Assembly: GCF_000315625.1 (NCBI RefSeq)
Contig: NW_005434580.1
Location: forward strand, 174,036 to 238,035
From: Guillardia theta CCMP2712
Lineage: Eukaryota; Protista; Cryptophyta
Direction: 5' to 3'
DNA length: 64,000 nucleotides
This document shows positions 9,589 to 51,083 of the stretch, piece after piece (position 1 is the first letter of the stretch; every line of letters starts with the position of its first letter). The notes below the pieces were generated by a model that ran no database searches, was not told where the DNA came from, and was given only the letters and a program-made list of their open reading frames with translations. A program made the position numbers and the translations under genes.

Positions 9589-9979
9589 TGGTCCGATCGC
9601 CTTCCAGCACAAGGCGCGCGAAAGCTCAAGATTGATGACGCGCTCTATGCAGAAACTTGACCCTTTAGTACTTCGCAAGGCTAACACTGATCCCCTGCTT
9701 GCCACGTGTAGCAGACATTCTTGTCTGTCCAGAGCTTGCGGTGTGATCATGGTGTGAGAGTCTGTGGCTGCAGACTCGGCGGCAACACCAACATGAAGTG
9801 GGGGGGGGAGGGGGGCACTGGGTGCAATGGCAGTGAAAGTTCATGACACTTGAAACGAGGAAATATTAAGGGCGGTTAGCAGCCTTCACTCCAAGCTGTT
9901 GGCTCCACCCTGCCCAGCTGGGGCCCCCTGTTACCCGAGCACGTCAGGGCCCAGCACAAGCCTAGCATTCCTAGCAGTC

Positions 9980-12602: not shown

Positions 12603-12752
12603 CTGACTGTCGCTGTGCGGCGATGACCGTGGTAACGTCTGATTGTGATCCGATGATCATCCCTTTGAGCCTCCAACACTCCTCGTACGGTCCTGGCAGT
12701 GCGGCGGGGAGGGTAGTAGGGTCAGAACGCGGCAGGCGAAACAGGGGGTTGG

Positions 12753-14814: not shown

Positions 14815-16708
14815 ATGATCAAATCTAAATTTTCCTTATTACGTAGTGATACATCAAATAAAATCTACATTGATATTCTAAAGATGGAGAGAACCAAAAG
14901 AAACACAAAGAAGCCTGAAGCTTTTAAACCTGATAACTTTAAAACCCAAAAGGCACAAAAGCCCAAGAAGCAACCCAAGCAGAATCAACCAAAGCAAGCA
15001 CAGCCTAAGCCTACACAAGCGAAGAGCATTGCTGCACCAAATAAAGCACCTCGCTTTTTGGAATACTATAAAGAACTTAAAGTTATGAATGATGACATTT
15101 CAAATAATTATGAAAACAGTCTTAAGCTGCTTGACTTTAATCAATATACCGATCCAACAAAAAGCTTTACAATATGGCAAAAGATGGAAGCTTTGGTTGA
15201 TTCAATTGATCCTAAAATCAATGGGCCAAACTCATTTATAAATGGCATCTACAAGCTCGATTATTCACCCGAGCAATATAAAAACCTTAATTACAAAAAT
15301 ATACCAACCTTAGAAGATCTAAAAAATAATAAGTATGTTCATATAGGCAGATCAAATCAGACAAAATTTAACATCTACAATCCGATTTATAATCAAGAAT
15401 GTCCCATCTGTTCCGCAAGATTTACAAGATCTTAAATTTTTAATAGAGAACCACAGACAAATAATTAATCAATTATTGATTTTGAGATTCAATAAGGGTC
15501 AATCAATCGCAACATGCCGTAATGATTTGTACAATATTGGGCGGCTAATGCGCATCGCTTTTGGTGATCAAAATGAACTTAAAACAAAACTTATCGCTCT
15601 AGCGATGGACTTTGACAACATCATAAGACAAGAAGAAGGACAGAACAAGTTGAACAAGTATGAAGAGGGTTTCATACCATATGGAAGCCTTCTTGACCTT
15701 GTTGAAGAAATGAATAAACAATTTAGAGAATCACTAAAAAACAAAGGTAAAAATGACCCCTTAACTTTCAAACTGCACATGTATGCCTTAATTTTGCAAG
15801 CGTATTTATACACGCCACCTGTCAGGTTGGAGCTCTCAAATGCTAAATTTACAACAACCTTATCAAATTTAAATAACAATACAGATTATATTCACATTCC
15901 AAATGACAAATCGAAACTTGTTGAGTATGTTTTTAACAAAGACAAGAAAAAGCACGGAGCTATAAGGTACTTTGTCGGCTATATGATCAATACCAGAGCA
16001 AAGATAAGCGAGAATCTCTCACCATATGCTTTTAAATTAAGTGATTTCATTCGTGAGAGCTATTCGCTTTATCCTCGTGAATATTTCATAACACAAATCA
16101 AAGATAGAAATAAACCAGCGTTAGCCAACATGGCCGTTTATCTTAAAAATATGTTTGATAAATTGCCTCTTAATGTCAATATGTTTCGCAGTAGTTTCGT
16201 AACATATCTCCACCAAAACAACACACCAAACAAGATTTTGCAAGACGTCGCCCTAAAAATGAGAAACTCAGTTATGCAACAACAAGCAACATATAAAAAA
16301 TCATTATCCAAAAATGAGATGATTTCGATCAAACAAGAAAAAGGATTCACTGACCTACAATCTGCGGCCGCTGAAACAATCAGGATCAAACAAGAGCCAA
16401 CCGATGAGATCCAACCTATCGAATCAGTACAACATACGATAAGGCAACCAAATAAACCACATATAAAAGATCCTAGAATATCAGAGCGCGAAAGACAACG
16501 CAAATATTATAACAATAAGAAAGCCGATATATTAGATAAGAAAAAACAGCAATACGAAGATAATAAGGACAAAATAACAGCTCGAAAGATAATTAAACGA
16601 TTAAATGACATCATTTCAACCGGTGGAACTGCCAAGCCAACAGCTGCCAGCATGGCAACATATCAACTATACAAGGAGGGCAACACATGGAAGAGCCGGA
16701 TACTCTAA
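14815..16708 (+). pseudogene. Tyrosine recombinase/integrase split by an apparent +1 frameshift (ORFs 14815-15435 and 15476-16708)
   Basis: Downstream ORF has YR-type motifs: PPVRLE (R), NKDKK (K), NMFRSSFVT (xxxR) and MRNS......TY (Y). It has only a TTG start in the ORF track, but its frame is open back to 15347 and overlaps the upstream ORF. Confidence 0.78.
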
Positions 16709-20089: not shown

Positions 20090-20395
20090 ATGGTTTATAG
20101 ACATGTTAAGCTATCTAGAAGCGATGTTAAAGGCAAGAAATACAAGATGGAATTTTATAACAAGGATAAGCAAAGAATAAAAACGATACATTTCGGCGCT
20201 ATTGGCTATTCCGATTATACCAAGCATAAAGATGATAATCGCAAGGCTAATTATATAAGCCGCCATCAATCAAGTGAAAATTGGAATGTACCAGACACAG
20301 CGGGCAGTTTGTCAAGGTGGATCTTATGGAATCATAAGAGCTTAAATGAATCATATAAATCATATCTCAATAAATTTAACCTTACTAAATTATAA
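20090..20395 (+). CDS. Tlr6F-like (DUF5754-like) conserved PLV/virophage/NCLDV protein
   Basis: KKY...KTIHFGAIGYSDYTKHKD..RK.NY..RH...W...SRWILW signature. Family assignment is from recall. Confidence 0.75.
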   Translation: MVYRHVKLSRSDVKGKKYKMEFYNKDKQRIKTIHFGAIGYSDYTKHKDDNRKANYISRHQSSENWNVPDTAGSLSRWILWNHKSLNESYKSYLNKFNLTKL

Positions 20396-20641
20396 ATGGA
20401 CAAGCTACCAGAACAAGGATATGCCATCATCACAAAAATAGGTTGTTCCTACTGTGATTGGCTTGAAGACTTCTTAATTGATAAAGGCATTGAATATGAG
20501 AAATTTGATATACTCGAATTCAATGATGAAGAAATGAAAGATTTGAAAAGCAAGCTTAATTTTAAGACATACCCCGCCTTTATTCGTGATAGATATTGCA
20601 TCGGTGGATACAAAGAAGCTTTGAACCTATTATCTAATTAA
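20396..20641 (+). CDS. Glutaredoxin
   Basis: CSYC active site, TYP cis-Pro motif, IGGY. Confidence 0.88.
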   Translation: MDKLPEQGYAIITKIGCSYCDWLEDFLIDKGIEYEKFDILEFNDEEMKDLKSKLNFKTYPAFIRDRYCIGGYKEALNLLSN

Positions 20642-21198
20642 ACATTGTTATTGTTATGGATCATAATGTTAGGAACAATAGAATTATATTGTTCCGATCC
20701 AGAATTCGGCGAGCTATTGCTCGGAGAATCACCGTTTAGAATGATAGGCAAAAAATAATCTCCATTATAAGCATTCTTTACCTTATTTTTAATATGATTG
20801 GGTATATTCTCAATATTCTCAGTCAATGAATCATATTGAACTACAAAGCTATTAAGTTTATCATTAGTTAAATCATTGATATTGATTGCTTGCTCGATGG
20901 CATGTTCTAATTTAGAGAACTTAATCGATAGCTGATGAAACATATTCGCCTTTTCTGTAAATTTCATTTGGTTGCTCAGTCCTATCAATATCGCAGTCAA
21001 TAGATTGCATATTATGTTCATATATCGCATTACTAAAGGATCTTCTACATTGCTATTTAATACACTCATAATAGCAGATATAAAAATTAATGGCACATTT
21101 AAAACCTGTTTCCACATGTGAAAATATGAGCTAGTTTTGGAACAGACAACAGCCATCACTTTCGACATGTCTTTGTATTTTCTAAATAGCAAGGCCAT
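20638..21198 (-). CDS. SLATT-like two-transmembrane protein
   Basis: Two hydrophobic helices (VPLIFISAIMSVL and IICNLLTAILIGL) followed by F.EKA..F......FSKL...IE. Confidence 0.65.
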   Translation of the reverse strand: MALLFRKYKDMSKVMAVVCSKTSSYFHMWKQVLNVPLIFISAIMSVLNSNVEDPLVMRYMNIICNLLTAILIGLSNQMKFTEKANMFHQLSIKFSKLEHAIEQAININDLTNDKLNSFVVQYDSLTENIENIPNHIKNKVKNAYNGDYFLPIILNGDSPSNSSPNSGSEQYNSIVPNIMIHNNNNV

Positions 21199-21330: not shown

Positions 21331-22227
21331 TTATTCATTGAATGAGATAAAAGAACCAGCAAGAACAAATAATCGGCTTAAATACATCTCAAGCCTATTG
21401 ATAGCCTTCAACAATGTTGTCTTATTGGTCAGGCTGTACGTCTTAAATTCTAGATTAATGACATAATTTGACAATCTCTTGAATTCTTGCCCATTCTCAT
21501 TTATGATTCTTATTCTGATATTATTTATTGCCTTATTTGATATCTTGTATTCATTGCAATTGCTGGCATCTATAAGACTATAAAATGGAATATCATTTAG
21601 ATTTATGATGCCTAACACCTGCGAGCTCTTGAAATCATTATATATGATATTATTGATTGAAGAGGCCTCAAAATTGACATCGCCGCTGATCTCAACAATT
21701 AGATTGCTATGACCTGATAGATTGACAAATGAGGGGAGTTCTTCGCCGCTTTCTGTTATCTCATATTGTACATTGTCATCACATCCGACCAATATGCCGC
21801 AATTTACAGATGTAAAATAATATTTGCCGAATTCATCAGATATATTCTTTTTGACAATGATTGAATTTCTTTTCTCATTATATGAAAATGTAATCTGTGC
21901 CTCTGCAATATAAATATTGTTTTGCACGATGTCATTTAAATCTTTAATAAGGTTGTCGATGCTATAGAATCCTTCTGATAGATAGAAATTATGATTTGTT
22001 GTCTGATCATCTGGATCAACAAATGTTATCTTAAATGCATTATTGACACTAGGAATAACAGCGAAAAACGATTTAATCATTGAAAAATTCTTCATTGCTA
22101 ATGTCAAATATTCATCTGATCGACACTTAATCAAACCACTTGTCAAAGCATAAAATACATTTGAAATCTCTTCATCTGATTGTCTATTCTTTGACGATAT
22201 TAAGACGTTAAGGCTTTGGTGAGCCAT
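21331..22227 (-). CDS. Minor capsid (penton) protein, single jelly roll
   Basis: Polinton/PLV mCP-like pattern: N-terminal VLISS..R, LSEGFYSI..L...LN, VLGII, INNIRIRIINENG and NYVINLEF. Adjacent to MCP genes. Confidence 0.8.
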   Translation of the reverse strand: MAHQSLNVLISSKNRQSDEEISNVFYALTSGLIKCRSDEYLTLAMKNFSMIKSFFAVIPSVNNAFKITFVDPDDQTTNHNFYLSEGFYSIDNLIKDLNDIVQNNIYIAEAQITFSYNEKRNSIIVKKNISDEFGKYYFTSVNCGILVGCDDNVQYEITESGEELPSFVNLSGHSNLIVEISGDVNFEASSINNIIYNDFKSSQVLGIINLNDIPFYSLIDASNCNEYKISNKAINNIRIRIINENGQEFKRLSNYVINLEFKTYSLTNKTTLLKAINRLEMYLSRLFVLAGSFISFNE

Positions 22228-22254
22228 TTTTTTATTATATTGATATATTAATAA

Positions 22255-23670
22255 ATGTCTCTACCGAGTGCTTTAAATGTAGATATAAATGAAATCAAAG
22301 ATTTCAGAAAGACCCTCGTTTCGTTCTATCCTGAGGAGATAAGCCGCACATACAAACCGAATGATAGAATCCGTCTTAATTTTCCTAAAGGACTATTAGA
22401 TTTATCATCATTTAATATATTCTATGACGCAAGAGGCAGCTTTTATAGATTGGTGTCAAATGGTGGCTTATTCTATTCATTAAATTACCATTTTCCAAAG
22501 CATACAAGCAGCTTAATACAATCATTAAGAGTCTTCATCAACGATCAAGAGGTTTCAAATATAGATGAGTTCAACACTATATATAACATATTGTTTGATA
22601 TCGAAAATGATAAGATAAATAATAATGGTTTAGATAATCACAACCCAGAATTTAAAACATTATCAATTGATGGCTATAATTATGACACATCTTTTAATGT
22701 TGCTTATAGCACGAAAATTACAGCCCCTATAATATCGAGTGGATGGTTTAGATATGCTGCACAGCCTACAGAGGCATTCACAGAGTCATTCGGAATCTCT
22801 GAATGGATAGGATTTTTTAGAGATATCAAATATATTAATACATTCAATATTGATTTATCGATTGAGATCGAGCTTGCTTCTCCTTACATATTGTTCTATC
22901 AAACAACATCAGCAGGCAACCAAAGAAGGAGCGCAAACGATACCCAAATAATAGATGGAGCAGATCCAGATTACACAATCTTTAATGTAAAGGCTAACAT
23001 ACATAAGTTAGACTTTGAGGGTGCCCCTAACATTTTGAATAACAATCTAACATTTACCGATTATGTCTCTAGGAAGGGCCCAAAATTGACAGTTGATAAG
23101 AACCAAAAATTAACAATGAATGTCAAAGCTGAATGTATTAAAAAATTGATTGCGACGTTTCTAAGCAATAGCAGGGATACAGTAGCAGAAAATTTTCAAT
23201 CAAACAACAGCGGTCTAAGTGTAGAGTATGAAAGACTAATCCAACAGGACGCTTCAACACGACTCGGCAACTCTGCATATTTTGCTAGGTTAGGGAAAGG
23301 AATAAATACAGTATCTTTTTATATTGATGATATACCAATAAATAATAATCCAATGACAATTATTGAAATCGAAAGAGAGACAAGACACGCATTCAATATC
23401 AAGAAAACACTATGGAATAATATTTATGAGTTCCAAAATGATTTTTTCAGCGCTGTGATGTCCCTTGAAGATCATATTAAGAAAAATGACGGTATTGTTA
23501 AATCTGGATATAATACAAATGGAAGGAATGCAAAAATAATGTTTGAATCTCAGGCATTCGGTGTTCCAGCTAACACATTGAATGAAGCTGATTTTATCGG
23601 CACACCGATCTTATTTATAGAAACAGAAAGGACAATAAACATAGATAACAATAATATATCGATATCTTAG
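22255..23670 (+). CDS. Major capsid protein paralog (double jelly roll, divergent copy)
   Basis: Aligns by eye with the next ORF, e.g. FPKHTSSLIQSLRVFIN..EVSNIDEFNTIYNI, ISEWIGF and YFARLGKGI. Confidence 0.82.
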   Translation: MSLPSALNVDINEIKDFRKTLVSFYPEEISRTYKPNDRIRLNFPKGLLDLSSFNIFYDARGSFYRLVSNGGLFYSLNYHFPKHTSSLIQSLRVFINDQEVSNIDEFNTIYNILFDIENDKINNNGLDNHNPEFKTLSIDGYNYDTSFNVAYSTKITAPIISSGWFRYAAQPTEAFTESFGISEWIGFFRDIKYINTFNIDLSIEIELASPYILFYQTTSAGNQRRSANDTQIIDGADPDYTIFNVKANIHKLDFEGAPNILNNNLTFTDYVSRKGPKLTVDKNQKLTMNVKAECIKKLIATFLSNSRDTVAENFQSNNSGLSVEYERLIQQDASTRLGNSAYFARLGKGINTVSFYIDDIPINNNPMTIIEIERETRHAFNIKKTLWNNIYEFQNDFFSAVMSLEDHIKKNDGIVKSGYNTNGRNAKIMFESQAFGVPANTLNEADFIGTPILFIETERTINIDNNNISIS

Positions 23671-23710: not shown

Positions 23711-25225
23711 ATGGAAGGCGAACAAGGAGAAGGCCACATGATCAAAGGTCAATTTTTTCCATCGAATTTCGATCATCAATTTGAAGTCTTACAAAATTAT
23801 TATACTCAGCCGGTGCGAATTGTACCAAGCACAGGACAACAAACCCTAGCAGCAGGCGATGAATTGATTATCACCTTGCCGCCTGCTTCTGTTGTTGATC
23901 TTAGAACCTTTCAGCTGTTTTTTAAGTCACAAGTGGCGGGAAACACTGTCGCAGCTACTGGCACAGTGCCATGCGGTTTTCCTAAGCACATCGCATCATT
24001 GATTCAAACTTTAGACATTTATGTAAATGGTGTGAATATCCAGCACATCGACAACTATAATATGCTTTATAACATCTATAAAGATATGTACGGAAGCGGT
24101 GAGCAAGAAGGCAAGCAGGCAGTATCAACAAATGCCGATCCATCTTCAAGGGTGATCGTTGGCAATGATGGAACACTTACCCGCCAAAGCTTTCACGTAA
24201 ATGCAGCAGTCACACAAGACAACGCCACCCTTAATCGCGCGATTGATACTTATTGCATCAAGGATTGGGTCGGATTCCTTGGATCATGCAGGCCTTCGAT
24301 CATTGATACAAATCTATTCGGAAGCTTTGAGATCAGAATGAGACTCGCCCCAAACAATGTTTTATGGAGGAATTCAGGCGCTGAAAATATCACATATTCA
24401 GTTTCTGACTTGTATGCGTACATCAACCGTATTGATTGGAAATCGCCAGATTATTATAGTCTTTATGATGCTATGCTTGCAAAATCAGGAAGTATGAATA
24501 TCCCATATAATAACTTTAGATGCCATATTGGCAATGCCTTGACTGATTCAAAGACAAACATCATGAGATTTACCGAGTCTTGCCAATCTTTAAATAAAGT
24601 CATTTGGACTTACAGAACATCGGCATATAATACAATCGCACCGCTGCAGCTTGCGAACGATGCCGCCGCTGCTTCTGGAGCTGCTGCGGCTGACATCGTC
24701 ACCGATCTGAACAATAACACATCGGTGCCGCGAAAGCTAGCCAATTATGAGACATTCTTATCTATGGATTATGCGCCATTATATAATTCATCCCAATATT
24801 TCCGTCGTAATGGGTTGGGCTTGGGCAGCAGTGATGGGAGCTATAACGGAGTGGCTCAACTTGAGGTAAATTCACAATTGATCCCATCATACCCTTTGAC
24901 CCTTCCGATGGTATATCAAGAGACCCTTAAAGCGTTCAACCTTCTATCAAATGACAAGGGAATTCATAGCGCAATGAAAAATATGGCTCATTATGAAAGG
25001 GACTTCTTTGTTGGCGCTTTCGCATTGTCGCACTTCAATAACAATGATTCGCAATATCTTATATCTGGCTTTGATAGTCAGGCGACATCTATTCAATTAG
25101 CGCTGCATGTTACAAACAATCGCACAACGACCAACGCGGCGGCTTCTGCTACTCCTGTGGTGTTCACCAGTATGGACAGTGTGCTAAAGGTGAGTGCGGG
25201 CAGACAGGTCCTTCCTATATTCTAG
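23711..25225 (+). CDS. Major capsid protein (PLV-type double jelly roll)
   Basis: 504 aa and beta-rich. ITLP..SVVDLRT, SLIQTLDIYVNG..IQHI.NYN.LYNI, and C-terminal SGFDS and DSVLKVSAGRQV. In a cluster with mCP and the ATPase. Confidence 0.88.
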   Translation: MEGEQGEGHMIKGQFFPSNFDHQFEVLQNYYTQPVRIVPSTGQQTLAAGDELIITLPPASVVDLRTFQLFFKSQVAGNTVAATGTVPCGFPKHIASLIQTLDIYVNGVNIQHIDNYNMLYNIYKDMYGSGEQEGKQAVSTNADPSSRVIVGNDGTLTRQSFHVNAAVTQDNATLNRAIDTYCIKDWVGFLGSCRPSIIDTNLFGSFEIRMRLAPNNVLWRNSGAENITYSVSDLYAYINRIDWKSPDYYSLYDAMLAKSGSMNIPYNNFRCHIGNALTDSKTNIMRFTESCQSLNKVIWTYRTSAYNTIAPLQLANDAAAASGAAAADIVTDLNNNTSVPRKLANYETFLSMDYAPLYNSSQYFRRNGLGLGSSDGSYNGVAQLEVNSQLIPSYPLTLPMVYQETLKAFNLLSNDKGIHSAMKNMAHYERDFFVGAFALSHFNNNDSQYLISGFDSQATSIQLALHVTNNRTTTNAAASATPVVFTSMDSVLKVSAGRQVLPIF

Positions 25226-26237: not shown

Positions 26238-27203
26238 ATGACTGATATCGAGACAATACAAATAAAATATTTGGACAATAAACCGAAACCCTTCAAAAAG
26301 CTTATCTATCCCCAGACTGACCCAAATCTACCGAGGCCTTATTGTGTATGCCTTGCTGTGGGCATGAGGGGCTCAGGGAAGACTTACGCAGTGACCAAGA
26401 TGATAAGCAACTTTGAAAAATTCGGATATATTGACCCAGAAACAGGCGATAAGGTAGCAATACGCACAATATTATTTAGTCCGACATATGACGCAAACCC
26501 TGTTTTTACTGTCTTAAATAGCTTAGACGATGATGATATAATAAATGAATTTACAGAAGAAAAGTTAGATGAGGTATTAGAGGATATTAAAAAAGAAGCA
26601 GAAGAGACAGAGAAATATTTAAAATATAAGAAGGCTTATCTGAAATTCCAGAAAACGCCTTTATCAAAGATTGAATCAATGGATCCCGAAGATTTACAGA
26701 TGTTATTTATCAATGATTTCAAGAATCCCAAGGATTTACCAAACAAGCCAAGATATCCCAACGGGGTTGTCAATAATGTAATTCTAGATGATTGTCTAGG
26801 ATCTAACGCATTTAAGAACAGCCGCAAAAATTCACTTGTTAAGGCAATATTGAACTCTCGTCACATGCGGTGCCAGTTCTTCATTTGTGCCCAGAATCTC
26901 AAAGCAATCAATAAATCAATAAGAGTCAATACATCGGTTTATGTTCTGTTTAAATTTGCATCAAAAAAAATCGTCATGGAAGACATTTATGAGAACATAT
27001 CAGGCTTGATAACAATTGAAAATTTTGAAAGATTATATGAATTTGCAACATCAGATAACCCACACGATGCCTTAGTTGTAGATACAACACAGAAAAAAGA
27101 GAATGTCTTTAAGCTTAATTTTGATAAGATCCTGAGAATTAAAAAATCTAATGATAATAATAAAGATGATGGAGGAAACAATACCACAAACGGCAGCAAT
27201 TGA
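26238..27203 (+). CDS. Genome packaging ATPase (FtsK-HerA / poxvirus A32-like)
   Basis: Walker A GMRGSGKT, Walker B VILDD, SRH and AQ motifs, IRVN. Confidence 0.93.
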   Translation: MTDIETIQIKYLDNKPKPFKKLIYPQTDPNLPRPYCVCLAVGMRGSGKTYAVTKMISNFEKFGYIDPETGDKVAIRTILFSPTYDANPVFTVLNSLDDDDIINEFTEEKLDEVLEDIKKEAEETEKYLKYKKAYLKFQKTPLSKIESMDPEDLQMLFINDFKNPKDLPNKPRYPNGVVNNVILDDCLGSNAFKNSRKNSLVKAILNSRHMRCQFFICAQNLKAINKSIRVNTSVYVLFKFASKKIVMEDIYENISGLITIENFERLYEFATSDNPHDALVVDTTQKKENVFKLNFDKILRIKKSNDNNKDDGGNNTTNGSN

Positions 27204-27470: not shown

Positions 27471-28157
27471 ATGTCTGGGCAATATTTCAAATTGAAGAAT
27501 AGTTATATCATAGATATTGATAGCTCAAATATTCAAAGCTATGAAACTTTGCAGTATTCCAACAATGCAACCCCTCCGCAAGTATCAGATTTTATCAATG
27601 ATTATAGAATTCATCTAAATATTCCTGTTGAGTTCTCAAGAAATTGCAAAATTGCAATAGATGAATTTGATTTAAAAATACTCTTAGCACATAATCAGAA
27701 TGAATTTATTGTCGAAACTGTCAATCTATTCACTCCGAGCATATCAGTAAAAAATCAATATCTATCTAGCAATAAAGCACATTTAAAATTATTTAGCAAA
27801 TACTTTGATAATCAGGATCAGGTTATTACTGTGGGAGATGGAACAGGCGGTTTTTCATCTCAAAACAATCAAAGCTTGATATACCACTATAAAAATAATG
27901 ATTTGCAATTGAATTCGTTTGAATTACGATCAAGCGATTTCGCTAAAAATGAGTTAGTCTTAACATTTCAAAACAAATATACTATCGTCGGATCTGCCGA
28001 TATTTTACTAAATCATGGCTTAGTCAAGGGTTCAGAATTTAATTTAAGACTGATCATATATGACTATGATGAAGACCAAGTCAATTATACACCGCCAGAG
28101 GCAACAATCAAAAATTTATTGCCTATGAGCAATACTGGAATAAATAAGATTGCTTAA
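27471..28157 (+). CDS. Beta-rich protein, possible second minor capsid (single jelly-roll) protein
   Basis: N-terminal IIDIDSS, YRIHLNIP, KIAIDEF and C-terminal FNLRLII resemble mCP strand order. Inference only. Confidence 0.5.
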   Translation: MSGQYFKLKNSYIIDIDSSNIQSYETLQYSNNATPPQVSDFINDYRIHLNIPVEFSRNCKIAIDEFDLKILLAHNQNEFIVETVNLFTPSISVKNQYLSSNKAHLKLFSKYFDNQDQVITVGDGTGGFSSQNNQSLIYHYKNNDLQLNSFELRSSDFAKNELVLTFQNKYTIVGSADILLNHGLVKGSEFNLRLIIYDYDEDQVNYTPPEATIKNLLPMSNTGINKIA

Positions 28158-29044
28158 GGCGCACCCGCTGCCATTGATTGCGAATTTAGATAATCATTTA
28201 ATAGAGATGTATAATATAGCTTTGTTTCTTGATTTGTGATAAGATTTTGATCAAGCGCAATCTCTAGCAATTTATACATTTGATCACCGAAACGATCCAA
28301 TGTTCTTTTTTGTGTTGCATTTCTACGATCTGCATTGAATGATCTTATGAATCTATCATAAGCGCCTCTATCATTTGGATTTGTCAAAGCGCTATAGAAT
28401 TGATTAAAATTTTGTGGCAACTGCTGAGTTAATAAATATGTTGCCCTTGGTGATGCTGGGGGTGGTGAAGCTGGCGGCGGTTGTGGTTGTGTTGTTGCTG
28501 CCGTTGGCGCAGGTGTTGGGGGTGGAAATGGTTGATATTGTTGAGTTGCCGCTGAACTCTGCGACGCTCCGCTTGGCAAAGCCGAGCCTCCAAATTGTAA
28601 CGTTTGCGGTGTTGGCAATGTTCCAGCTGCTGGAACTGCTGCCGGTTGTTGCGGTGTTGCTGGCATTCCTTGAATGGCTTGCATTGATGGCATAGCCGGT
28701 TGATTGATTAGATTATTAAGCATCTGGTTAAAATTAGTCTGTTGTCTTTGCACATCTTGATAATAATTTTGCATGTCTCTGCTTAATGTCTGATACATTG
28801 ATTGCCCTTGATCATTGATTCTTCTTATCTCATTAAAATTAATTGACCCGAAAGGGTCAGATATAACCCTCATGCCATGGCCATAAGATAATTGATTTTT
28901 ATTAGGTGGTAATCTAAGACCAGCCGTTTTTTTTCTTTCTTGCGATTGCTCATCGCAACACTCATCATTTTTAGAATTTAAATTGTTCTCTATCTTCACA
29001 TTTACAATAAGCGGCTTTGAGGATGTTTTATTTTGTGTTACCAT
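28154..29044 (-). CDS. Q/P/A-rich hypothetical viral protein
   Basis: 296-aa ORF with TAAATG start context and a low-complexity core. Confidence 0.7.
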   Translation of the reverse strand: MVTQNKTSSKPLIVNVKIENNLNSKNDECCDEQSQERKKTAGLRLPPNKNQLSYGHGMRVISDPFGSINFNEIRRINDQGQSMYQTLSRDMQNYYQDVQRQQTNFNQMLNNLINQPAMPSMQAIQGMPATPQQPAAVPAAGTLPTPQTLQFGGSALPSGASQSSAATQQYQPFPPPTPAPTAATTQPQPPPASPPPASPRATYLLTQQLPQNFNQFYSALTNPNDRGAYDRFIRSFNADRRNATQKRTLDRFGDQMYKLLEIALDQNLITNQETKLYYTSLLNDYLNSQSMAAGAP

Positions 29045-29051
29045 TTACATA

Positions 29052-32010
29052 TTATACGCTATTTATTTTATTTTCTAATTCTTGTATTCTATTCAATGCG
29101 CTTGTCAATTGCCTTGATAATTCTTGTATAGCTGATATGCCATAACTATAAATGATATCCTTTCTCAACATATGAAAATCACTCACCTTTTTACCCATAA
29201 CGATTAATGTTTTTGTGTCTGCCGGAAATGTCTTATTAACTCTGTAATTATAAGAATCAATAACTTCTAATATTTCAAGCTCTTCATTTTGAACATCTAA
29301 AATATCGCCCACTTCATATGGTGCTTCTAGTGATAATTTTAATATGTCGCCGTTTATTGTTGCTTTATCATCCTTAATAGGCAATGTATCGCTTATAACC
29401 TGAACCGCTTCAGGTATGACCTCCTTAACCTCTTGAGCAATAAAACCAACTACTTTATCTTTATTTCTATTGTCTCTGTAGTCATATTTTTTTGGTTTCA
29501 ATTTATTTATTACATCCAAACAATATGAGTCATTTAAATCTTCTATATTCTTTTTAATCCTTATGTCTGAATTATTAAATAGTCCATTGTAATAATATGT
29601 CGCAGAGTATAGATGTATCGTTCCCTCTATACCATCGACTTTAATCCTCCAATCATAGGTTTGAACCTCTCTGTTATTATCGCCGGTATTATCCAAACAA
29701 ATCATAAAATCATGTCTTGACCAACTTCCGCGAGCTTGTAAATATATCATAGATTTATAAGGATTTGTTACATTAAATGGAGTTCCAAAATAAATAGCTC
29801 TAGATGTGTGTTCATCACCAGAGCGCATATACCAATTATTCGTTGAAAAAATATAACCATTGACTGTAAAATTAGTAGATGAACCTCCGCAATTTGCTGC
29901 ATAATCAGCATGTGCGCAGCTCAACTTATTCCATTCTGTAAAGTTTCCACCCTCTCTATATCTAACACATAAATAAGGAGATGGCTTATTTCTCGCTATA
30001 GCAAACTGAGCACCATAAGAGGTCCAAGGATAATCAGCACCTAATCCAATATTCCAAGTATAATATTGAGTGGCGCTATCGACATTGGGTCCGTTTGTTG
30101 TATTCTGTATAAACCACGAACCGAAATTAGGTATATCGTTAAAATCTGTATAGGTTCCGTGGTTGTTCCCCATATTGTTAAACAATCTATGCGCGCCTGT
30201 CCCTGTTATGCTCCCTGTAACATCTAGATTTGCGGTGACCGTGAATGTTCCAGAAGGAATAGATATCCCGCCCGCTGTTGTGGCATGATTTGCGGTTCCT
30301 GATGTTGTAGCATAATTTGCGCTTCCTGCTGTATCAGCATATGATGCTGAAAACCTCTTCCAAGACTGCCATGAGTTATTCCATTTATACCTAAAATTTA
30401 TGTATGTGTTATCAAAAGTCCCGCCATTGCTTATTCCCGCACCAATTGCTATTTGTAAAGCATATGATAAGTCACCATTATAATTATAACCGCTGCCTAT
30501 GTTCAAAGCATAAAATTCTGTTTGGCCTGTATTATTAGGGGGCACATTCACAGGTTGATTACCAGAGCCACCAATTAAATAATAACAACCGAAATTAGGC
30601 AATCCGTTAAAATCTCTATAGTCGGTTATTGAAGCTCTCACACCGCTATTATTGAATAAATAAAAGTTTGGATTAGACACCAGAGCCGGCTTATTTGTTA
30701 AATCATTGTAAGAACCACTAAAAGGGGTAAACATGACATTATTGATATATATCGTTCCCGTAAATTTGATATTATTAGCATCTAAATATACTCTGCTTGT
30801 TGCTGTTGGTGATATCAAAAGATTATTTTCATATTGTGTGCCTGTATCTTGCTTTCTACCAATGGCAAAATCACCCGTTGCGTTGATTGCTATCAAATGC
30901 TGCCACCCGAAAGCTGTCCCGTTGATATTCTTATTTAAAAATATATATCCTTGTGTCGTGCTTCCGCCTTGTGTAACATCGCCAAGTATAAGATAAGGAT
31001 GTTTTAGGATTGTGAAATTATCCGTGCCGTCATTGTAAATTGAAAAATAAGCATCTGGAACAAATGACAATTCGCCAGCAGCTGAAACGCTAAAATCTGA
31101 TGATACACTTGATATATAATTAGTATTGTTTCCAAAAGTTTGAACCTTTTGATATCTTATTATCACAACTCCAGACCCTCCAGCTCCTCCGGCTATTGAC
31201 CCATTACTACTGTATGACCCGCCACCTCCTCCACCTGTTCCGCTTTGTCCTGCCTGAGCTGTGCCACTATTGAGAGTTGTGCCACTCGCATTTCCTCCTC
31301 CTCCAAGACCTCCATTATTGCTGCTATTTCCTCCACCACCTCCACCACCATAATATACTAGCGTTCCTGTTATATCAACTTGACGACCATTTCCACCCTG
31401 TCCATTTGAAGCATTTGCTCCAGCACCACCACCAGCACCTCCTCGATTGAGGCCACCACTTACATAAAAACCAACGCCATTATTACCACCGGCAACATAT
31501 GATGAACCATTCCAAAAAGTATTGCCTTGAGTAGCTGTGCCGCCTGATGTGCTATTAAAAGCAGCACCTCCTCCAGAGCCTCCAGACCCACCACTTGAAC
31601 CATTGGAACCACCGCCACCAAATCCTCCTCCTTTGCCCACTAAGCTTATAGAATCAAAAGAAAGAGCGGAGTTATTTATATCTGTTATTTTACTGTCATT
31701 GCCATTTCTATTCGCTGCTCCTCCATTTCCTACATAAATATAATAGGTACCAGCTGATATTGTCTTATTGACCATATACAGCACACCACCAGCACCGCCA
31801 CCGCCTGCCTCATATCCAGCTCCTCCAGTTGCTGCTGTTCCACCACCGCCACCCCCACCAACGATGAGGATATCGCAGGTTGTGGAATACTGAACATCTA
31901 GGCTATAGGTTGTATTGTCACCTGAACCTCCATAAGTAAAAAGTAAGTATCCTGTTGTTTCATCTATATCGATATTGGCAATTGTGCTAGTCATCGGGTT
32001 AATATATCTA
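29052..32010 (-). CDS. C-terminal part of giant fibre protein: glycine-rich domain, two tail-fibre knob-like modules, peptidase S74 intramolecular chaperone
   Basis: LIVGGGGGGG...GGSGVVIIRY glycine-rich domain, FSGSYNDLTNKP, and SDIRIKKNI...GFIAQEV..VIPEAV...AIQEL. The nominal ATG (32024) lies inside the terminal repeat, so the 5' end is truncated. Confidence 0.88.
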
Positions 32011-32819
32011 GCAAGTAAATACATTGGAAACGTGAGGAGACAAACTTTTATAAATCAATTTAAAATTTCAATGATTTTTACGAACACCCAAAAAATTCAT
32101 TTATTTCTCTTTATTTTCCCTACCGAATCCCTATTATATTTTATTCAATTGAAATAATAGCTGCGCATTGGTGCGGATTATCACACAAAATAACCAAAAA
32201 CAAACGAGCGCACACACGGAGTGTGCCAGAGCAAACATAATATCAATGAAAATTATGAATCCTTCAAGGATCATATAAGTAATAAAAAAATCTATGTGGG
32301 GTGATGGGGTAAAATATTAAACACGTTGTTTTGCAAACCCCCCTAAGTAACAAAATAATCTATCCCCGCCGCCACCCTCCGCCCCCTCCGCCTCTACCCC
32401 CCGCCTATTTCACATAACGGCTTAATTTTTCTTTTCTTTATTTTTTCCGCTCTATTACATGCGTAGTTTATTTGGCGGGGGGGACGGGGGGGAAAACTCC
32501 ATTTTTCCATGGGAGTATATATATATTGCCACATGCCGGATGGTCTAAATATATTTATCCTCAAAATCACGATTTTACCCCCCGCCCCCCCCGCCTTACG
32601 TCTATTTAACCTACGTTTACCATTCTTTTCACACTCCACCACAGCCAAAACATGGCGGAGGGACCCACCCGCCTACCTCCCCGCCTACCCCCCGCCCCCC
32701 CCCGCCTACCTCCGCCTACCTCCGCTCCTCCTTTTATTAAAACCCCTTTATCATTATCATTACCATTATTATACTAAATTATATTCTTTATTTTTATCTA
32801 TCTTTCTTTATTATAAATG
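32008..32819 (+). repeat. Terminal repeat copy 2 (inferred right TIR, now internal and in direct orientation)
   Basis: Same start and end as copy 1, with small indels and a diverged central spacer. Confidence 0.95.
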
Positions 32820-35800
32820 TCATGTCGGAACAATGACCGGCAGCCCTATCAATTTATTGGCAGCACAAACAGGACAACTTTACAACCTGAAATCAATCAA
32901 ATTAATGCCGATATCAATGCCCTTTATTCTAATGTCGATGTGCTCAATGATGAGACAAATTTATTATTTAATCGATATGAGACGATCGAAGCGCTTGCAA
33001 TTGATACATCCAATAACCTAATATCAACATCTAATCAATTATATGAAGGTATCGAAGACAATTCAAATGAGATCAATTTTATTCTCCGCCGCATTAATGA
33101 CCTTTCACAGACCGAAGAAACAGTCATCATGAACCAAATGAGAATGTTGATCTATTTGAAATATGATCTTGATCTTGAAAAATCAACAATTAAATTCGCT
33201 TTGGAAAATGGAAGCTTGATATCTATTCAATACATCAAAAATAAATTAGATGAATTAGCAGGAGCTGACCAAGCCGAGGATGCAGAGGATGCAGCAACAG
33301 ACGCAGCACAGGCAGGGGCCGATGCTGTCAATGCAGGCGGCGGATTTGCTGGCTCTGTTGTTTCGGCCGTTGCTGGTGGTATTTTTGGAGCACTTGGGGG
33401 CTCTGCCCTCGCTATTCCGTCCATGATAGAGGCGGCAGCTACTAGGGAAGCAGTTATTGCTTTGATGCGATATCTTCAAGATATAGATGATCAATTGAAA
33501 GTTCAAGATGATGTCATTAAGGTTTATTCAAGAGACCTTATAGATGGTGAAAATTTAGGCTTTGGATCTAATCTGAATTTTATATATGATTTAGAAATTG
33601 TGACATTGCCTAATGGCTGCAATGTCAATAAATGGACAACTCGACTTTTAGGCGAACAGATCTTAACATTAGGCGAAGAATTGACAGAAGCCGAATTAAA
33701 TCAATATGTATTTGGTAGCAATTATGAACTACAAACATTAAAAGAACATAAAAATGTTTTCAAAGGCAAGACATTATTTATTGATGATATTATTGCGCCT
33801 AATATCTATACCAAAAGCGAGACAGATAATGAGATATCAAACACTTCAAACATATTATTTGATGTCATAAGAACAGAATCAAACATATTATTTGACGCTT
33901 TGCTTGACTGCGTCAACTTAATAAAAACAGAGTCAAACATATTATTTGAATATATACAAGATGATGTCAAAAACACTTATGATAAAATTGTTTCTAGTCC
34001 ATGGACAAGCAATATATCTTCAATATCTATTAATTACAATGGCAAGGTTGGCATTGGAAACGCCGAGCCTATGGGCCCGCTTCACATTGGAAATCCAAAT
34101 GTGTTTAGCGATGGTCATCTTATCCTAAGCTATGGAACCGGAGGATATGGAACAAATTTCCGGATTGGCTATAACTTTTTAGATAATTATTTAATGATGG
34201 GAGATTTTACAAGTGATTCTTGGAAAGGTCAAATAAAGATAAACCCTGATGCCTATGATGGCGCTTTTGTCATTGAAAACGACGGTTCAATTCTGCTCGG
34301 TTACAAAACGGCAATACTACCCACAGGAAGAAAACTTAAATTAAATTCTGCTGGAAATTTTGACGATGGGGTTGAGATTGTCGGAAATCTCACGGTAACA
34401 GGTGAGATTGTGGGGTTGCAAGATATCATAAATAATACATCCAATATTCTATATGAAATCATACGCGATGAATCAAACATATTAAATAATACAATATATT
34501 CAGAGTCAAATATATTATATCATTATCAAAAAACAGATTTTAATCTGTTATATGATACGATATATTCAGAATCTAATATATTATATAATTATCTGAAAGA
34601 AGATTATGATATATTACATGATAAGATATATTCAGAATCTAATATATTATATAATCATTTGAAAACTGATTCAAACCTATTAAACAATCATATATATACA
34701 GAGTCAAACATTCTTTATCATGTGATCAACAATGAAATAAAAAACTCAGTGAATACAAATAATTTAACAGTCAATAATTCTTTAACGTTCTCGGATAAGT
34801 TAGCTTTGAACAACAATAATTTAAACATAACATATCCCCTTTCATTATCACCAGTCAAAGGAGATGTGTATATTGGGCCTAGCAGTTTGACAATAAGAAA
34901 CTTATTGAATACATCTTATAATAACATTGAATTTACCGGAACGGTCGAAGATACATATAAACTTAACATATCAACATACAGACTTAATTTTCAAAGCAAT
35001 CAAAATTTAATAGTCAATGACCTTTTATTTTCTCAATATATAAACCTTTCTTTTTGGTGGAGATTTGACAACACGAACGAGGCAAGAAACAACGGAACAC
35101 AAGAATATAGACTTTTTCAAATCAAATATGAAAATAAGAATGGCAACGATGATTTTTATGATGGGACTGAATTTTACTGGATTATTTCAGATGATGATTC
35201 TTTACCTGATAAATTTTTGGGGCTGCGGGTCAAGATTGTATATATAAATAATTTACAACAAAGGGTTGAGAATTTGAGGTCCGTCATCATTAACAATAAT
35301 TTTGCGAATGATAAAACATTGTTTTACGATTGGAATCATTACGCTTTCAGCATATCCAAAGATATATTTAAGGTTTATCTAAATGGTGCTTTGGTGGCAA
35401 TGGATATCACGCCACCGACTGCGAACTGGTATCAACTACATCCAATTCAAATTTATAATTATAACATTAGAAACTACATCCTAAAAGATGGGAGATATTC
35501 AGCTAATAGGGGAATATGTAATATTGTTATGAATGCCACAAATGGCATATGGTCTGATGATGATGTTTATAAATTATATAATGGTGATGTCAATAACATG
35601 AAAACAAAGATAACGGGAGGGCTACAATTAGATCATTTGATATGTAATAATATATTATATGGTGGTGCCTCCCTAAATTTGAATAATCAAACAGTCAGCA
35701 CAGAACAAAGCCTATCAACAAATAATAATATACGACGGAGCTTAACCATTAACAATGAACCAGCCAAGACAGACATCAAAGATTTATTTGATTCAGCAGA

Positions 35801-38800
35801 TAGACAAGGAATACTAAAGATATATTTTGATGAAGCACAACAAAGATATGTTTCTACAATTGAAACGTTTCAGCTAAATTTTAAGAACACAAAAGACGGG
35901 GATGTTACCATAACTCTAAATAATTATAATAGTCAAGATATAACACTAAAAGATGGAATTCAAGGCCCTCAAGGCCCGCAAGGCCCGCAAGGAAGCACCG
36001 GACCACAGGGAAGCACCGGACCACAGGGAAGCACCGGACCACAGGGAAGCACCGGACCAAAGGGTGATAGGGGCACGAACGCCGGTCAAATCATATTTAA
36101 AAATTATGATGGAACGGTTGAATTAGCAAAAATCGGCGATTCTAATGTTTCAAGTGCCTCAATCAATATTCCAAAAGGAACAAATGCCGGAGAGTTGAAA
36201 TTTTATAATGCTGATGGGACTGAATTAATAGGAAAAATTGGAGATGCCAATGTTTCGAGTGCTTCAATTAATCTGCCAGCAGTTGGCCCAAGGGGTTACG
36301 CCGGTGTGAATGCTGGACAGCTTAAATTTTATAATTCAGATGGCTCGACATTATTAGGTCAAATCGGAGATTCTAATGTATCATCTCAATCAATAAATTT
36401 ATATAGTGCCGGTGTGAATGCTGGAGAGCTCAAATTTTATAATTCAGATGGCAGTTTATTATTAGGTAAAATCGGAGACCCTAACGTTTCAACTGCTAAT
36501 ATAAATATACCAGCAGGAGAACAAGGCCCTCAAGGCATTCAAGGCATTCAAGGCGTTCAAGGAATTCAAGGAATTCAAGGCGCAACAGGACCAGCCGGCA
36601 CAAACTGCCCCGAGATTGTTTTATTAGACAGTCAAAATCATGAGCTTGTGAGATTTGGTGATTCAAGCGTTTCAACTCAAACTGTCATACTTCCAAAGCT
36701 ATATGACGATACAGACACAAGCAATTATCTATACACAAATGAATATATACAACGTCATGAGCTAGAAGATACAAGCAATCTATTATATGAAGATATAGAG
36801 CTATATAAATTTAAACCTATTGATTATCTTGTCAATGATGGAGGAGATATCTTCTTGTTCGATGAATACACAAACAAAACTTACAATACAACAAATTCAG
36901 AACTTCAATTGACTAATTCAAATAAGTCTGTATCTCTAATATTTGAGGATAAGCAATATGATAATGTCTTGATTACTCCTGAACTTTATAACTTTCAGTA
37001 CTCGGCCGCAGGCACAAGTACACTAACACCTACAATATCATATACAGGGCCTACGCCTGAGATAGCTTGGTATAAATTTAACGATGATTTAATAAATGAT
37101 ATAGATTCAATAACAACCATAACAATAACAAATGGGGCTTATTCGTTCTCATCAATTACTAATAAACAAGGTAAGAGCTTATCACTAGATAGTAAAAATA
37201 TAGATGGTTTATCTTGGACACGGTGGAACAACGGATATGCTGTATATTCTGGCACTGTTAATTCAACTGGAACAGACACAAATATATCAAATGATTTCAA
37301 TGTTACAGCTGAAGAAAATTTTGCAGTTGAATATGTAGGATATTTTTATACAAATTCCTACTCGGGAACTTTCACATTTTACACATCAAGTGATGATGAA
37401 AGCTACCTATGGATTACATCCGGAGGTACAGAGACAATGGTAGTAAATAATAGTGGAAAGCATGCGACACAAGAAAGAAGCGGCACAATTACTCTAAATT
37501 CTTATACATATTATCCTATACGTGTTCGTTTCAGTGAGGCAACAGGCGGCAATTCAATTACCGTCAATTTTGCCGCTTCTGGATTGACAAAGACAACAAA
37601 CGGAAGCGGATTTTATTATAACAGAATAAACACAAATGTTTCAATACCAGACATCATATATAATGGGTTTCTTACTTTCGCTTTTTGGTTGTATGCTAGG
37701 AGTTCTAACAATGAAACAATAATTAATTTAAGCGATGGTATAAATAACATAAAATTATATATAATTTCTGGTGTAGTATCTATAAGCATAAATGGCGTTA
37801 ATGATACAGCAACAGGTCAATCGATTGATTTAAATACATGGACACATTATAGCTTGACAATTGGAAATTCAATAAATCTATACAAAAATGGGAATAAATA
37901 CACGTCTTCACTCACTAAACCGACCAACACAACATTTAACAAAAATAAATTAGGGTTAAATTCTGATGATTCAGGTTATACATTATTAGCAAATTATCAA
38001 GATTTAAGATTTTACAATAGAGAGCTTTTAGAAATCGATGTTAATTTGATAATTGGATATTCAGGACAAAGAGCCTTAACAGTTCAGAACTTTGCTAAGC
38101 CTTACACCAACGCGCAAATCGATGATAAGATTGATAATATTGTTATCCCAGCTGGCTATAGTGATACAGATGTACAAGCATATCTAACAGCCAATGATTA
38201 TGTCACATTATCAGACATACCAGCTGGATATTCTGACACTGACACACAAGCATATTTAACTACAAATAATTATTTAACAAGTGGAACACAATTTATAAGA
38301 AGCGTTACAGGCAATCAATTAGCTTTATCTTTTACACCTTTTACATCAGCAAGTCAATATATACAATCGGTTAATTCATCTTACTTTAGCGTTACAGGCA
38401 ATCAATTAAGTCTAAGCTTCACACCTTTAATATCATCAAGTCAATATATACAGTCGGTCAATTCCTCATTTACTGTTACAGGCAATCAATTGAGCTTATC
38501 ATTTACACCATTTACATCAGCAAATCAATTTATCCAATCTGTCAATTCTTCTTTTACTGTTACAGGTAACCAATTAGCTTTATCATTTACACCATTTACA
38601 AGCTCAGACCAATTTATAAAATCTGTCAATACAAATAATTTATCGGTAAACGCTAGCGGTCAGCTGGATATAATAGCTGTTCCATCAAATTTTATAAGTT
38701 CAGTGTCAAACGATTTCAATGTATCTTCTGGATTATTAAGCCTAGCTAATAGCTATGTCCTTCAAAGCACTTTTAATGAACTTTTTGGTAGATTGACATG

Positions 38801-38801
38801 A
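32817..38801 (+). CDS. N-terminal part of giant fibre protein: SNIL coiled-coil repeats, LamG-like domains, collagen repeats, PA14 domain, shaft repeats
   Basis: 1994 aa with GPQGST/GIQ collagen, PA14 motif [12 protein letters not shown]...NNSGKH and WNHY/WTHY LamG motifs. The stop codon falls just past the element boundary in host-like sequence. Confidence 0.9.
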
Positions 38802-38881
38802 CAGGAATGACGGAGGTAATCAGTCATTCTCTTCATTCATTCTCAGATGCTCACGAGCTTCTTAATCCGATCATCATGACT

Positions 38882-41800
38882 TCAGAACTTGGTGCCATCC
38901 ACACTCGGAACGTTCCTCTCAACTCCTCGCGTGTCCGGCCCGCTGTAAGTCAGAAGCTGGTACACCCCACCATTGCCCTGGTACCCGGTAAGCAGGACCT
39001 TGTGATCCCCAGCTGAAAGGGTGATGGAGCCGCAAACTTTCCTAGGGGGATGCTCGTAGTCGTTTTCTAAGATCGTCCTGCCGTCCACGTAGACGTAGGA
39101 GCCGTCGTCAGAGGTGGAGCAGAAGGAGTAGGAGCCCTCCTCCGTAACCCGCACCTTGCCGTACACCGCCCATGCGTAGTTGCCTTCAGGGCATGAGGGG
39201 ATGATCCTGCGGAGGTCATTTAGGTCGCCGAAGTAGACGGTGGAGATGGTAGCCTTGTCAACAAATTGCAACGAGCTCATGTCGGGCACGCGAGAAAGAT
39301 AGCTGGAGGCCTTGTACAGGTACATCGTCCACTTTGATGGGGGAGGGATGGCTGGGAGCGACTCTACGGGTGTGCTGACCATGCGCTGATCCAAGTTCCT
39401 TGTGTCTGGACCCGAGTAGGTGGCGACTTGGTAGGCTTCTCCGCTGCGAAGGAAGCCCTCGATGCGGATGGCAAAGCTGCCGACGGCAAGGCTGATGCTT
39501 CCGCACTTTCTCTGCACGTTGTGCGTGCCGTCATTGCTGGCGACGAGCTGGTTGTCGACGTAGAGGAAGGAGCCGTCCTCGGAGGTGGAGCAGAAGGTGT
39601 AGGAACCAGGCCCTTTGATATCCACCATCCCATAGAAGACCCACGCGAACTGCGAGGAAGGCGTGTCACCGACGATCTGCTTGAAGTCTTGTGTCCTGGT
39701 GAAGTACAGGTCTTGCACGCTGCCCTGCCCTACATAGGTGAGGTAACGCCAGTACGCGTCTGCCATGTTGTAGAGGTCTGCGCCTTTGAACACCCGCAGA
39801 GTCCACGAGGAGGCCGCTGGCTTTTGTGGAGCCCAGGCGGAGGAGCAAGTGAGGTAGCGCAAGACGTTGCCAGTGTCAGGCCCGGCGTACTGAGCGATGA
39901 GGGAGGCGTCGCCCTCGTACTTGAAGCCTGTCAGGAAGACCGTGTGCGATCCCTTGCTCAGCTCCAGCTCGCCGCACTCCTGCCGGGCCCCATGCGACCC
40001 GTCGTTGTCAACCACCAGAACCTCCTTGACGTACAGGAGTGACCCCTCGTTGGACGTCACGCACATCCTGTATGTTCCTGCCGCCCCCACGCTGAGCTTA
40101 CCATACACGGCCCACACGTAGTTGTACTCGGGCGTTGAGGGTACGATACTCTGAAATTCACTCCTGTCGTAGAAGTTGATGTACTCGCTGTTTCCTTGCC
40201 CCACAAACTGCAGCAGGCCCAATGCTGGCGTGTAGTCGAGCTTAGACACGTGGCTCTGGTAGATGCGGACGAGGAACGAGGAGGATGGCTTGTTAGGAAG
40301 GTTCGGCAAGTTGCCAGCAGAGGATCCCAGACTTTTGACGAGCAGCTCAGCTCCTCCTGTGTCAGGCCCACTGTATCTCAGCTCAGCATGCAGGCGGCCA
40401 GAGCCCACGAAGCCCTCGAGCGTCAGCTCGTGCGAGCCAGCGTCCAGCTGGGTAACAGCGCACTCGCGATGCTCCGTGTGCTCCCCGTTGTTCTCGACGA
40501 GCAGGCGGCCTGCCAGCAGGACGCGCGAGCCGTCGGAGGAGGTGGTACAGATCTGGTAGTCCCCAGCCTTCACCACCAGCAGTGAACCATAGAAGATCCA
40601 GAGGACGTTGTTTGTGGGCGTGTTGGGGATAAGGGATTGAAGCTCGCTCATGTCCTCCATGTCCACCTCTTCCAGTCCTGTCTGCTCACCTATCATCTTG
40701 ACCATCGGGACATCAGGGATTTGCTGCCAACAGCCGTCAGAAGTAGCGCCCCTCCCTCCTCCTTCCCTCTCTTTGTCCTGGAACCCCGCCCCCCCCCCAT
40801 CCCCTTCCTCTCTTCGCCCTCTCTCTCTCCATCCTGTCCTCCCTGTCCTCCCTCTCACATGAAGAGCCTTGGGGGAGCTAAAGGTTCGAACTCCCCAGTC
40901 TGATTCCATCGGTTCTTTGGGCAGGTTTCCTGTCGCGTCTTCACTTCTCAAGAGCATGAAGTTCTCGCCAGTGTCATGACCCCTGCATCATCGATCAGCA
41001 GCTCGCACCAGCACAAGGGCTGCCTCACTTCCAGAACGCATGCAGCACGAAGTTCCCTGTGCTCAAGAAGCCGCGGACCTCCACTGGCACCAGACCGTTC
41101 GAGACTTCGTAAGTACCGCACACGTGCTTTTCCTCGTGCCTCCCGTCGTTGTCCACCACCAAGTTACCGTCGATCCACAGCTGGGAGCTGACAGGCAAGT
41201 CAGCGAGGATCGTGAGGTTCGCAAGCACCTACCCGTCCGAAGAGGTTGTGCACCACTGGTACTCGCCTCCCCTCTGCACCAGGACGTTGCCGTAGAAGAT
41301 GGCCATGAAGTTGGAGGAGGGAAGATGTTCGAAGTACTTGAGCTGATGTCAGCATCGCAGCAAGCATGTCAAGGATTCTAAGGACCTTGCGAAGTTCGCT
41401 GGTGCCCTGGAAGTTGATGTAGGGGATGGTAGTACTTCCAATATGGTATAGAGCCAGCAGGGAAGGCATGTATTGTAAGGTGTCGTCGGCTTCGTAGAAG
41501 CGGACAGTCCAGCTCGAGCGAGGCCTCTTGACAGCGCTGGTGATCTTAGAGAAGACAAGTCAGGCCGTTGGAGAACAGAGAGGGCGAGACGAACCAGCAT
41601 CGACTTTGCGCGATCCTTCCAGCCTTCCCAAGACAAGCAGTTGATGTCTCTAGGGCCTACGTAGGTGATCTTGTTGCCTTGGAAGTACTTGTCAGAGAAC
41701 AGAGTGACCTGCAGGTGTGTTAGGCGAGAAGGTGGATGACAGCGGCGACCGAAAATTTCTCAGGGATGGAGAGGGAGGCAATTTCGTTGGGGTTCAGCTT

Positions 41801-50965: not shown

Positions 50966-51083
50966 NNNNNNNNNNNNNNNNNNNNNNNNNNNNNNNNNNN
51001 NNNNNNNNNNNNNNNNNNNNNNNNNNNNNNNNNNNNNNNNNNNNNNNNNNNNNNNNNNNNNNNNNNNNNNNNNNNNNNNNNNN
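50966..51083. other. Assembly gap (N run) inside a (CAT)n microsatellite
   Basis: Run of N flanked by CAT repeats. Confidence 0.98.

Follow-up and report, generated by a model that had tools for sequence, protein, structure and literature searches.

The window analyzed here, 64,000 nucleotides of Guillardia theta CCMP2712 (RefSeq assembly GCF_000315625.1, contig NW_005434580.1, positions 174,036 to 238,035, forward strand), holds an integrated Polinton-like virus (PLV) of low GC content (12753 to about 38791; ∼26 kb) whose fiber gene lies in two parts on opposite strands. The sequence supports an inversion of the right end that split one fiber gene of ∼2,975 amino acids (aa). On balance, we favor the reading that a likely one-off inversion, caused by the PLV family's own integration enzyme, took in the right terminal repeat together with the 5′ two-thirds of the fiber gene. 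The best reading of this copy is a dead provirus, not a switch.

The 5′ two-thirds of the fiber gene (N-part; 32817 to 38788, plus strand) encodes collagen, PA14/GLEYA, and laminin G3 domains and shaft repeats. Its open reading frame (ORF; 32817 to 38801, 1,994 aa) ends LFGRLT, and the stop codon ending at 38801 lies past the break, two codons into host DNA. The 3′ third (C-part; 29052 to 32007, minus strand), which keeps the original orientation, encodes a Gly-rich domain, one shaft motif, and a C-terminal S74 chaperone; its ORF (32024 to 29052, 990 aa) starts MYLLARYIN within a terminal repeat. TAGAT stands at 38789 to 38793 and ATCTA at 32006 to 32010, and the two junctions are complementary at 8 of 9 positions. 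The end of the one ORF and the start of the other, the shared TAGAT, and the junction complementarity had been reported in a preliminary description of this DNA, and all were found in the sequence. So was the claimed consequence of reversing 32006 to 38793: the terminal repeats become inverted, and each end of the element reads CTAG. Reversal in silico also gave the single open frame of 2,976 codons that had been predicted, but the natural joint described below is 3 bp shorter. Because an in-frame open fusion was also obtained from 545 of 2,116 nearby breakpoint pairs, the open frame is weak evidence on its own, and we rejected it as stand-alone proof.

Public sequencing runs were compared as contigs, not raw DNA reads, and contigs drop rare variants; 4 of the 24 listed runs were placed on 28000 to 41500. 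One contig (depth, 13) of freshwater metagenome X6 joins 32007 to 38788 on opposite strands, with 60 letters on its shorter side, so an unsplit fiber gene exists in nature. The joint was reported with one letter fitting both sides, which is obtained only if the plus strand to 32007 is followed by the minus strand from 38788; the fusion proposed in the preliminary description gives five shared letters. The natural gene thus has 2,975 codons, in frame and with no Arg at the joint. The shared TAGAT was therefore probably made in part by the event itself. Two native fiber genes with an internal repeat, which the preliminary description had named as the finding that would speak against an inversion, were rejected, since the opposite-strand joint of the relative's unsplit gene contradicts them. 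A tandem second element was also rejected, as it would need a second break at exactly the complementary base.

The three bases in question, TAG at the right junction (38789 to 38791, plus strand), are absent from the natural unsplit gene. They therefore likely stem from the host target or were left as a footprint by the end of the element. With TAG set aside, TTGG^AT is the sequence at the fiber break and also at the site of insertion in the host. The host halves of this inferred target are TTGG (12749 to 12752, plus strand), immediately left of the element, and a flank opening with AT (38792 to 38881, plus strand), downstream of a host gene. The fiber break thus matches the host flanks at 4 + 2 contiguous bases, and a match of at least 6 occurs at 102 of 51,992 element positions (0.2%). 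Apart from three bases, the two junctions are reciprocal. Measured against the X6 joint, neither has lost any base, and one of the breaks coincides with the right repeat's first base.

In run X1, an 8,003-nucleotide (nt) contig without differences starts at 38752, includes at least 37 viral letters, and continues past the right junction into the host sequence at a depth of 66, which is that of the host flank. The fiber-host junction therefore exists in X1, and because the contig is unbroken there, no major branch at that point leads to an uninverted end or to an empty allele. Depth in X1 rose to 785 on the repeat region versus 66 to 83 on unique parts, which points to several related copies. 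Run X2, from another study, contained pieces of the same copy (29430 to 31063 and 36620 to 38126) with no base substitutions; no piece listed for it crosses either junction. In X6, depth was 8.6 in the bin at 38824 to 39274 versus 15 to 275 in the viral bins covered. The X6 host flank (39371 to 40483) is ∼97.6% identical (27 differences in 1,113), with the viral parts several times deeper, which suggests a wild host relative with many PLV copies or free virus.

The left terminal repeat (12753 to 13569, plus strand) begins with CTAG and ends at the ATG of the first gene. The displaced right repeat (32008 to 32819, plus strand) is now internal and direct, its outer CTAG end adjoining the broken fiber gene. 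The copies, ∼820 bp long, agree at 738 of 839 columns (88%), and both open with CTAG and close at a start codon, as expected for terminal repeats that drive the first gene from each side. Terminal inverted repeats, by which PLVs are recognized, are found here once the segment is reversed; as assembled, the repeats are direct. Counting both strands, and with the termini and junctions among the sites, the element contains the motif TTG[C/G]TAG eight times. Divergence between the copies is patchy (197 of the first 200 columns are identical, and one block has 65 of 100), a pattern that suggests mosaic or partly homogenized repeats. Both hold GC-rich CCCCGCC-type runs amid AT-rich DNA. A search with the repeat-end pattern gave no match in viral sequences and one in metagenomes (L001), which was dropped as a relative and attributed to chance because only the 21 pattern bases are shared.

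The start of the C-part does lie in the repeat, as had been described, but this is incidental: the left repeat carries the same outward ATG, and we rejected the ATG as a designed start of the C-part. The shaft motif said to be common to both halves is real (six times at N-part residues 1826 to 1959, once at C-part residue 303), but a BLASTP comparison of the halves with each other returned nothing significant (best E value, 0.75). Among 120 listed long homologs, 24 align into the first 40 residues of the C-part; because all 24 alignments begin at subject residue 393 or later, the C-part start region is internal in those proteins. In each of three homologs checked, S74 is at the end. The first 500 residues of the N-part had 48 protein matches, the close ones being fragments (67 to 255 aa); a 71-aa Hanusia phi fragment is 70% identical to the N-part. 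None of the 11 long matches to these 500 residues carries S74, and the end of the N-part had no protein match at 1,096 to 3,490 aa. Tandem repeats within the fiber gene lie at 34413 to 34721, 36072 to 36516, and 38301 to 38633 (units of 33 nt, about 105 nt, and about 85 nt, respectively), and the number of units varies among relatives (e.g., a 33-nt skip at 33845 to 33879 in three runs).

The enzyme that we would hold responsible is a tyrosine-recombinase-like protein, acting either from this copy before it was frameshifted or from a related copy. The putative gene in this element (14815 to 16708, plus strand) is split over two overlapping frames of 208 and 453 codons (stop to stop; overlap, 15347 to 15435) and so is probably frameshifted, or misassembled. 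The remaining viral ORFs look open, unlike this one, which may reflect real decay or assembly error. The protein had Atlas scores of 0.91 to 0.92, with 5 of 30 matches in a set carrying PF00589 on 17% of members, and had no Pfam, PHROG, PDB, or fold match; catalytic-looking motifs read by eye and the Atlas lead point weakly to a candidate tyrosine recombinase.

With one break lying precisely at the end of the element and the other resembling the site targeted in the host, it is plausible that the element drove the event. The right end would have been released from the host by a cut and then attached within the fiber gene at a target-like site; because that site was oppositely oriented, the outcome would be an inversion and not a deletion. 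The ancestral fiber site would have read TTGG^AT, the same as the host target minus the element and TAG; the moved end would have retained its whole CTAG, and TAG would have stayed on the host side. TAG could have arisen by fill-in of a 3-nt staggered cut, for which the 3-bp footprints of terminal bases left behind by Tc1/mariner elements offer a parallel, or, if the host target read TAG, these bases could have come from the target in an exchange of the Tn916/Tn1549 type, which does not depend on homology. The predicted product is a 1,994-aa fiber without the tip or the S74 chaperone, the C-part being promoterless, and since the right boundary lacks a viral end, excision of the whole element is predicted to be no longer possible. 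One-off self-inactivation, which the preliminary description had offered beside a reversible switch, is the reading that we favor.

Several points weigh against this reading. X1 may be the source sample, and among the listed pieces none bridges the internal junction as assembled. The 3-bp difference comes from one metagenome contig of a different lineage, and a codon indel at the joint is possible, as other 3-bp indels separate relatives; an indel exactly at the break would be a coincidence of ∼1 in a few hundred (our estimate, not computed). The TTGG^AT comparison was chosen after the data had been seen and requires that TAG be disregarded. Standard tyrosine-recombinase chemistry does not add 3 bp, unless TAG represents host target bases, and the identity of the recombinase is weak, with an Atlas lead and by-eye motifs on one side and blank profile, structure, and fold searches on the other. 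A database protein spanning both fiber halves was not found, which is weak evidence either way.

The preliminary description had proposed that the element's recombinase acted on an internal target-like site. Although an element-driven event remains plausible, a one-off conservative tyrosine recombination between the right attachment site and a pre-existing TAGAT look-alike is unlikely. The five bases common to the junctions, their complementarity at 8 of 9 positions, and the clean reversal with CTAG at both ends speak for such an exchange, which also agrees with the textbook requirement for overlap-region homology (available text of PMC5871717), but the sole natural unsplit joint lacks three of the five bases, leaving the pre-existing site unsupported and a codon indel needed exactly at the break, and TTG[C/G]TAG is present at eight places in the element. 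Still less probable is an origin at integration, in which the right end of a free linear virus became joined to the virus's own fiber gene, and the fiber end thus freed, instead of a viral end, to the host. All three junctions would then form without gain or loss of bases if the empty site read TTGG followed by TAG, and a related recombinase-encoding PLV is described as linear with terminal repeats as a free virus (available text of https://doi.org/10.1101/2022.07.28.501842); yet three joins in one event would be required, and there would be no explanation other than chance, if any, for a host TAG that matches the TAG of the viral terminus. We give equally little weight to repair of a host double-strand break that flipped the segment without a viral recombinase. 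End joining typically leaves a small duplication at the break, the element's recombinase-like gene carries a frameshift, and a putative endonuclease is encoded; host repair would nonetheless have had to place one break exactly at the element end and the other at a match to the host target (0.2% of positions), with both junctions complete when compared with the X6 joint.

A reversible programmed switch, as the preliminary description had suggested, would detach the fiber tip and chaperone and lock the provirus until the segment was flipped back. The junctions share TAGAT, a flip there keeps the frame open, the N-part retains a promoter-side repeat, and the C-part has an ATG. Against this stand the lack of an alternative C-terminal half, an N-part that stops two codons into host DNA, a site that is the host-virus junction peculiar to this locus, the frameshifted recombinase-like gene, and the X1 contig, which passes unbranched through the right junction in one orientation, although contigs drop rare variants. 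The switch thus found no support, and we regard it as very improbable. The same very low probability attaches to the idea that the intact recombinase of a sister copy re-inverts the segment at TAGAT, restoring the fiber frame and both terminal repeats; if true, provirus reactivation would be under a lock based on DNA inversion, the first such in a eukaryotic virus. An assembly artifact among many near-identical PLV copies is no more credible. Many related copies exist, such loci are known to misassemble (available text of PMC10120064), the window contains a scaffold gap (50966 to 51083), and the internal junction lacks a bridging piece among those listed; but the host-depth X1 contig crosses the fiber-host junction without differences, and the junctions are reciprocal to within three bases, with too little common sequence to mislead an assembler.

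Among known systems, the event would work like an intramolecular transposition and not like a Mu-type switch. In autointegration of transposons and retroviruses, one end attacks an internal target, and an opposite orientation gives an inversion. These systems and Tc1/mariner use DDE enzymes, whereas profile searches detected no DDE enzyme in this element and no match to the rve integrase among its proteins. Inversion of the phage Mu G segment by Gin, like related tail-fiber switches, also has one break inside a fiber gene, but here there is one C-part only and no second C-terminal half, the sites are complementary at 8 of 9 bases and are not long inverted sites, there is no dedicated or intact invertase, and one break is the host junction. 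The Y-transposases of Tn916 and Tn1549, tyrosine enzymes that join ends to targets almost without homology, offer a possible working model (available text of PMC5871717). Those elements, however, are bacterial and conjugative, with crossover regions of 5 to 7 nt and T/A-tract targets, whereas the ends here are CTAG and the junctions are 3 bp off those of the relative.

According to the available text of a survey of cryptophyte PLVs (PMC12220804), recombinase-encoding elements are common in these hosts, mostly without target duplications, their integration via a circle is suggested but not shown, and each fiber is one long protein that has collagen or laminin G3 domains and ends in S74. The element described here resembles them in size, low GC content versus the host, terminal repeats, primase-helicase, SLATT gene, long collagen/laminin G3/S74 fiber, and absence of a 6-bp target duplication; it differs in its direct repeats and split fiber. 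Because that survey took inverted repeats as the mark of a complete element, the present copy and others of its kind would have gone uncounted. Its main text has no occurrence of "inversion," and "CTAG" appears in two rows of its supplement, both unrelated 6-bp duplications. Gezel-14T (PgVV-14T) and the Tetraselmis TsV-S2x PLVs also have terminal repeats and a fiber as the longest gene, and their tyrosine recombinase is presumed to integrate and excise; in TsV-S2x, the D5 primase-helicase adjoins the recombinase, as it does the recombinase-like gene here (https://doi.org/10.1101/2022.07.28.501842; https://doi.org/10.1101/2025.10.09.676808). The available text of these papers gives no junction chemistry or internal inversion, and that of a further preprint (https://doi.org/10.64898/2026.07.28.741278) mentions rearrangements but never "inversion." No published PLV case of such an end inversion was found in a search that had most subscription journals and preprint supplements outside its reach. 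A search for a hairpin-telomere route in PLVs, which could also be imagined as the source of the extra three bases, found no paper.

The insert has a GC content of 28 to 45% versus 45 to 61% in the flanks (1-kb windows), with a step from 0.53 to 0.32 across the left boundary; its length (26 kb) falls within the 15 to 40 kb expected of a PLV with a GC shift relative to the host. Simple repeats are abundant in the flanks, which include host tandem arrays at 8586 to 9700 and 6100 to 7037 (a 27-bp unit in >30 copies and a 103-bp unit). The scaffold gap is a run of 118 N's within a CAT microsatellite. No second copy of the host flanks was found in the window, so the empty site is unreadable there. 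The insertion lies ∼90 bp beyond the stop codon of an intronless-looking host gene outside the element (38882 to 40957, minus strand), with profile matches to four PA14 domains; among named eukaryotes, Hanusia phi has the closest homolog (29% identity). The viral fiber also has a PA14/GLEYA domain (residues 1497 to 1585), probably by coincidence. Metagenomes carrying related sequence were mostly freshwater; together with the Hanusia phi matches, they suggest that the host of this PLV is a cryptophyte-like protist, probably of fresh water.

Other genes of the element include a primase-helicase (17153 to 19810, plus strand; Prim-Pol, PriCT_2, D5_N, and DUF5906, all four above the curated cutoff), which supplies the replication gene expected of a PLV. 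A likely double jelly-roll major capsid protein (23711 to 25225, plus strand) scored 0.98 in Atlas against Preplasmiviricota clusters with Capsid_N on 14 to 24% of members; its recognition value (1,854) is below 2,300, it had no HMM match, and its structure model was unusable. Single-sequence structure models were poor (pLDDT, 49 and 29), and Foldseek returned no matches. The likely packaging ATPase (26238 to 27203, plus strand), with a Walker A motif read by eye, had weak profile matches (phrog_2666, E value of 2e-4; AAA_14, E value of 0.057). A SLATT-like membrane protein (20638 to 21198, minus strand; E value of 1e-4) fell below the curated cutoff, and what we take to be a putative GIY-YIG-like endonuclease (14043 to 14756, minus strand) was recognized from a motif read by eye, without Pfam support. 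The element also encodes a DUF5754 gene and a small thioredoxin/glutaredoxin-like gene (20090 to 20641). Minor capsid candidates (21331 to 23670 and 27471 to 28157) had no informative profile match. Searches of viral, metagenome, and prokaryote contigs gave no confirmed relatives of the capsid protein, ATPase, recombinase-like protein, C-part start, or N-part end, and an exact database look-up found none of seven window proteins. No RNA run was listed among the data sets carrying the sequence. In RNA run X18 (∼6% read), 68 reads were placed, 48 of them only 90 to 95% alike, which is uninformative on expression.

In the available portions of the literature consulted, the way in which PLVs with a recombinase connect their ends to the host genome is presumed, not shown. 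This locus preserves three junctions of one element together with a natural unsplit reference, a rare base-level trace of joining, and predicts termini of CTAG, a target reading TTGG^AT, and an offset of 3 bases. The biological weight of one dead copy is modest, and the value of the locus is that the junction chemistry becomes testable. Copies of this kind would escape any survey that requires inverted repeats, and in a gene count, their fiber would appear as two genes. For endogenous PLVs, an inversion of this kind would be a way to self-disable while nearly all reading frames stay open.

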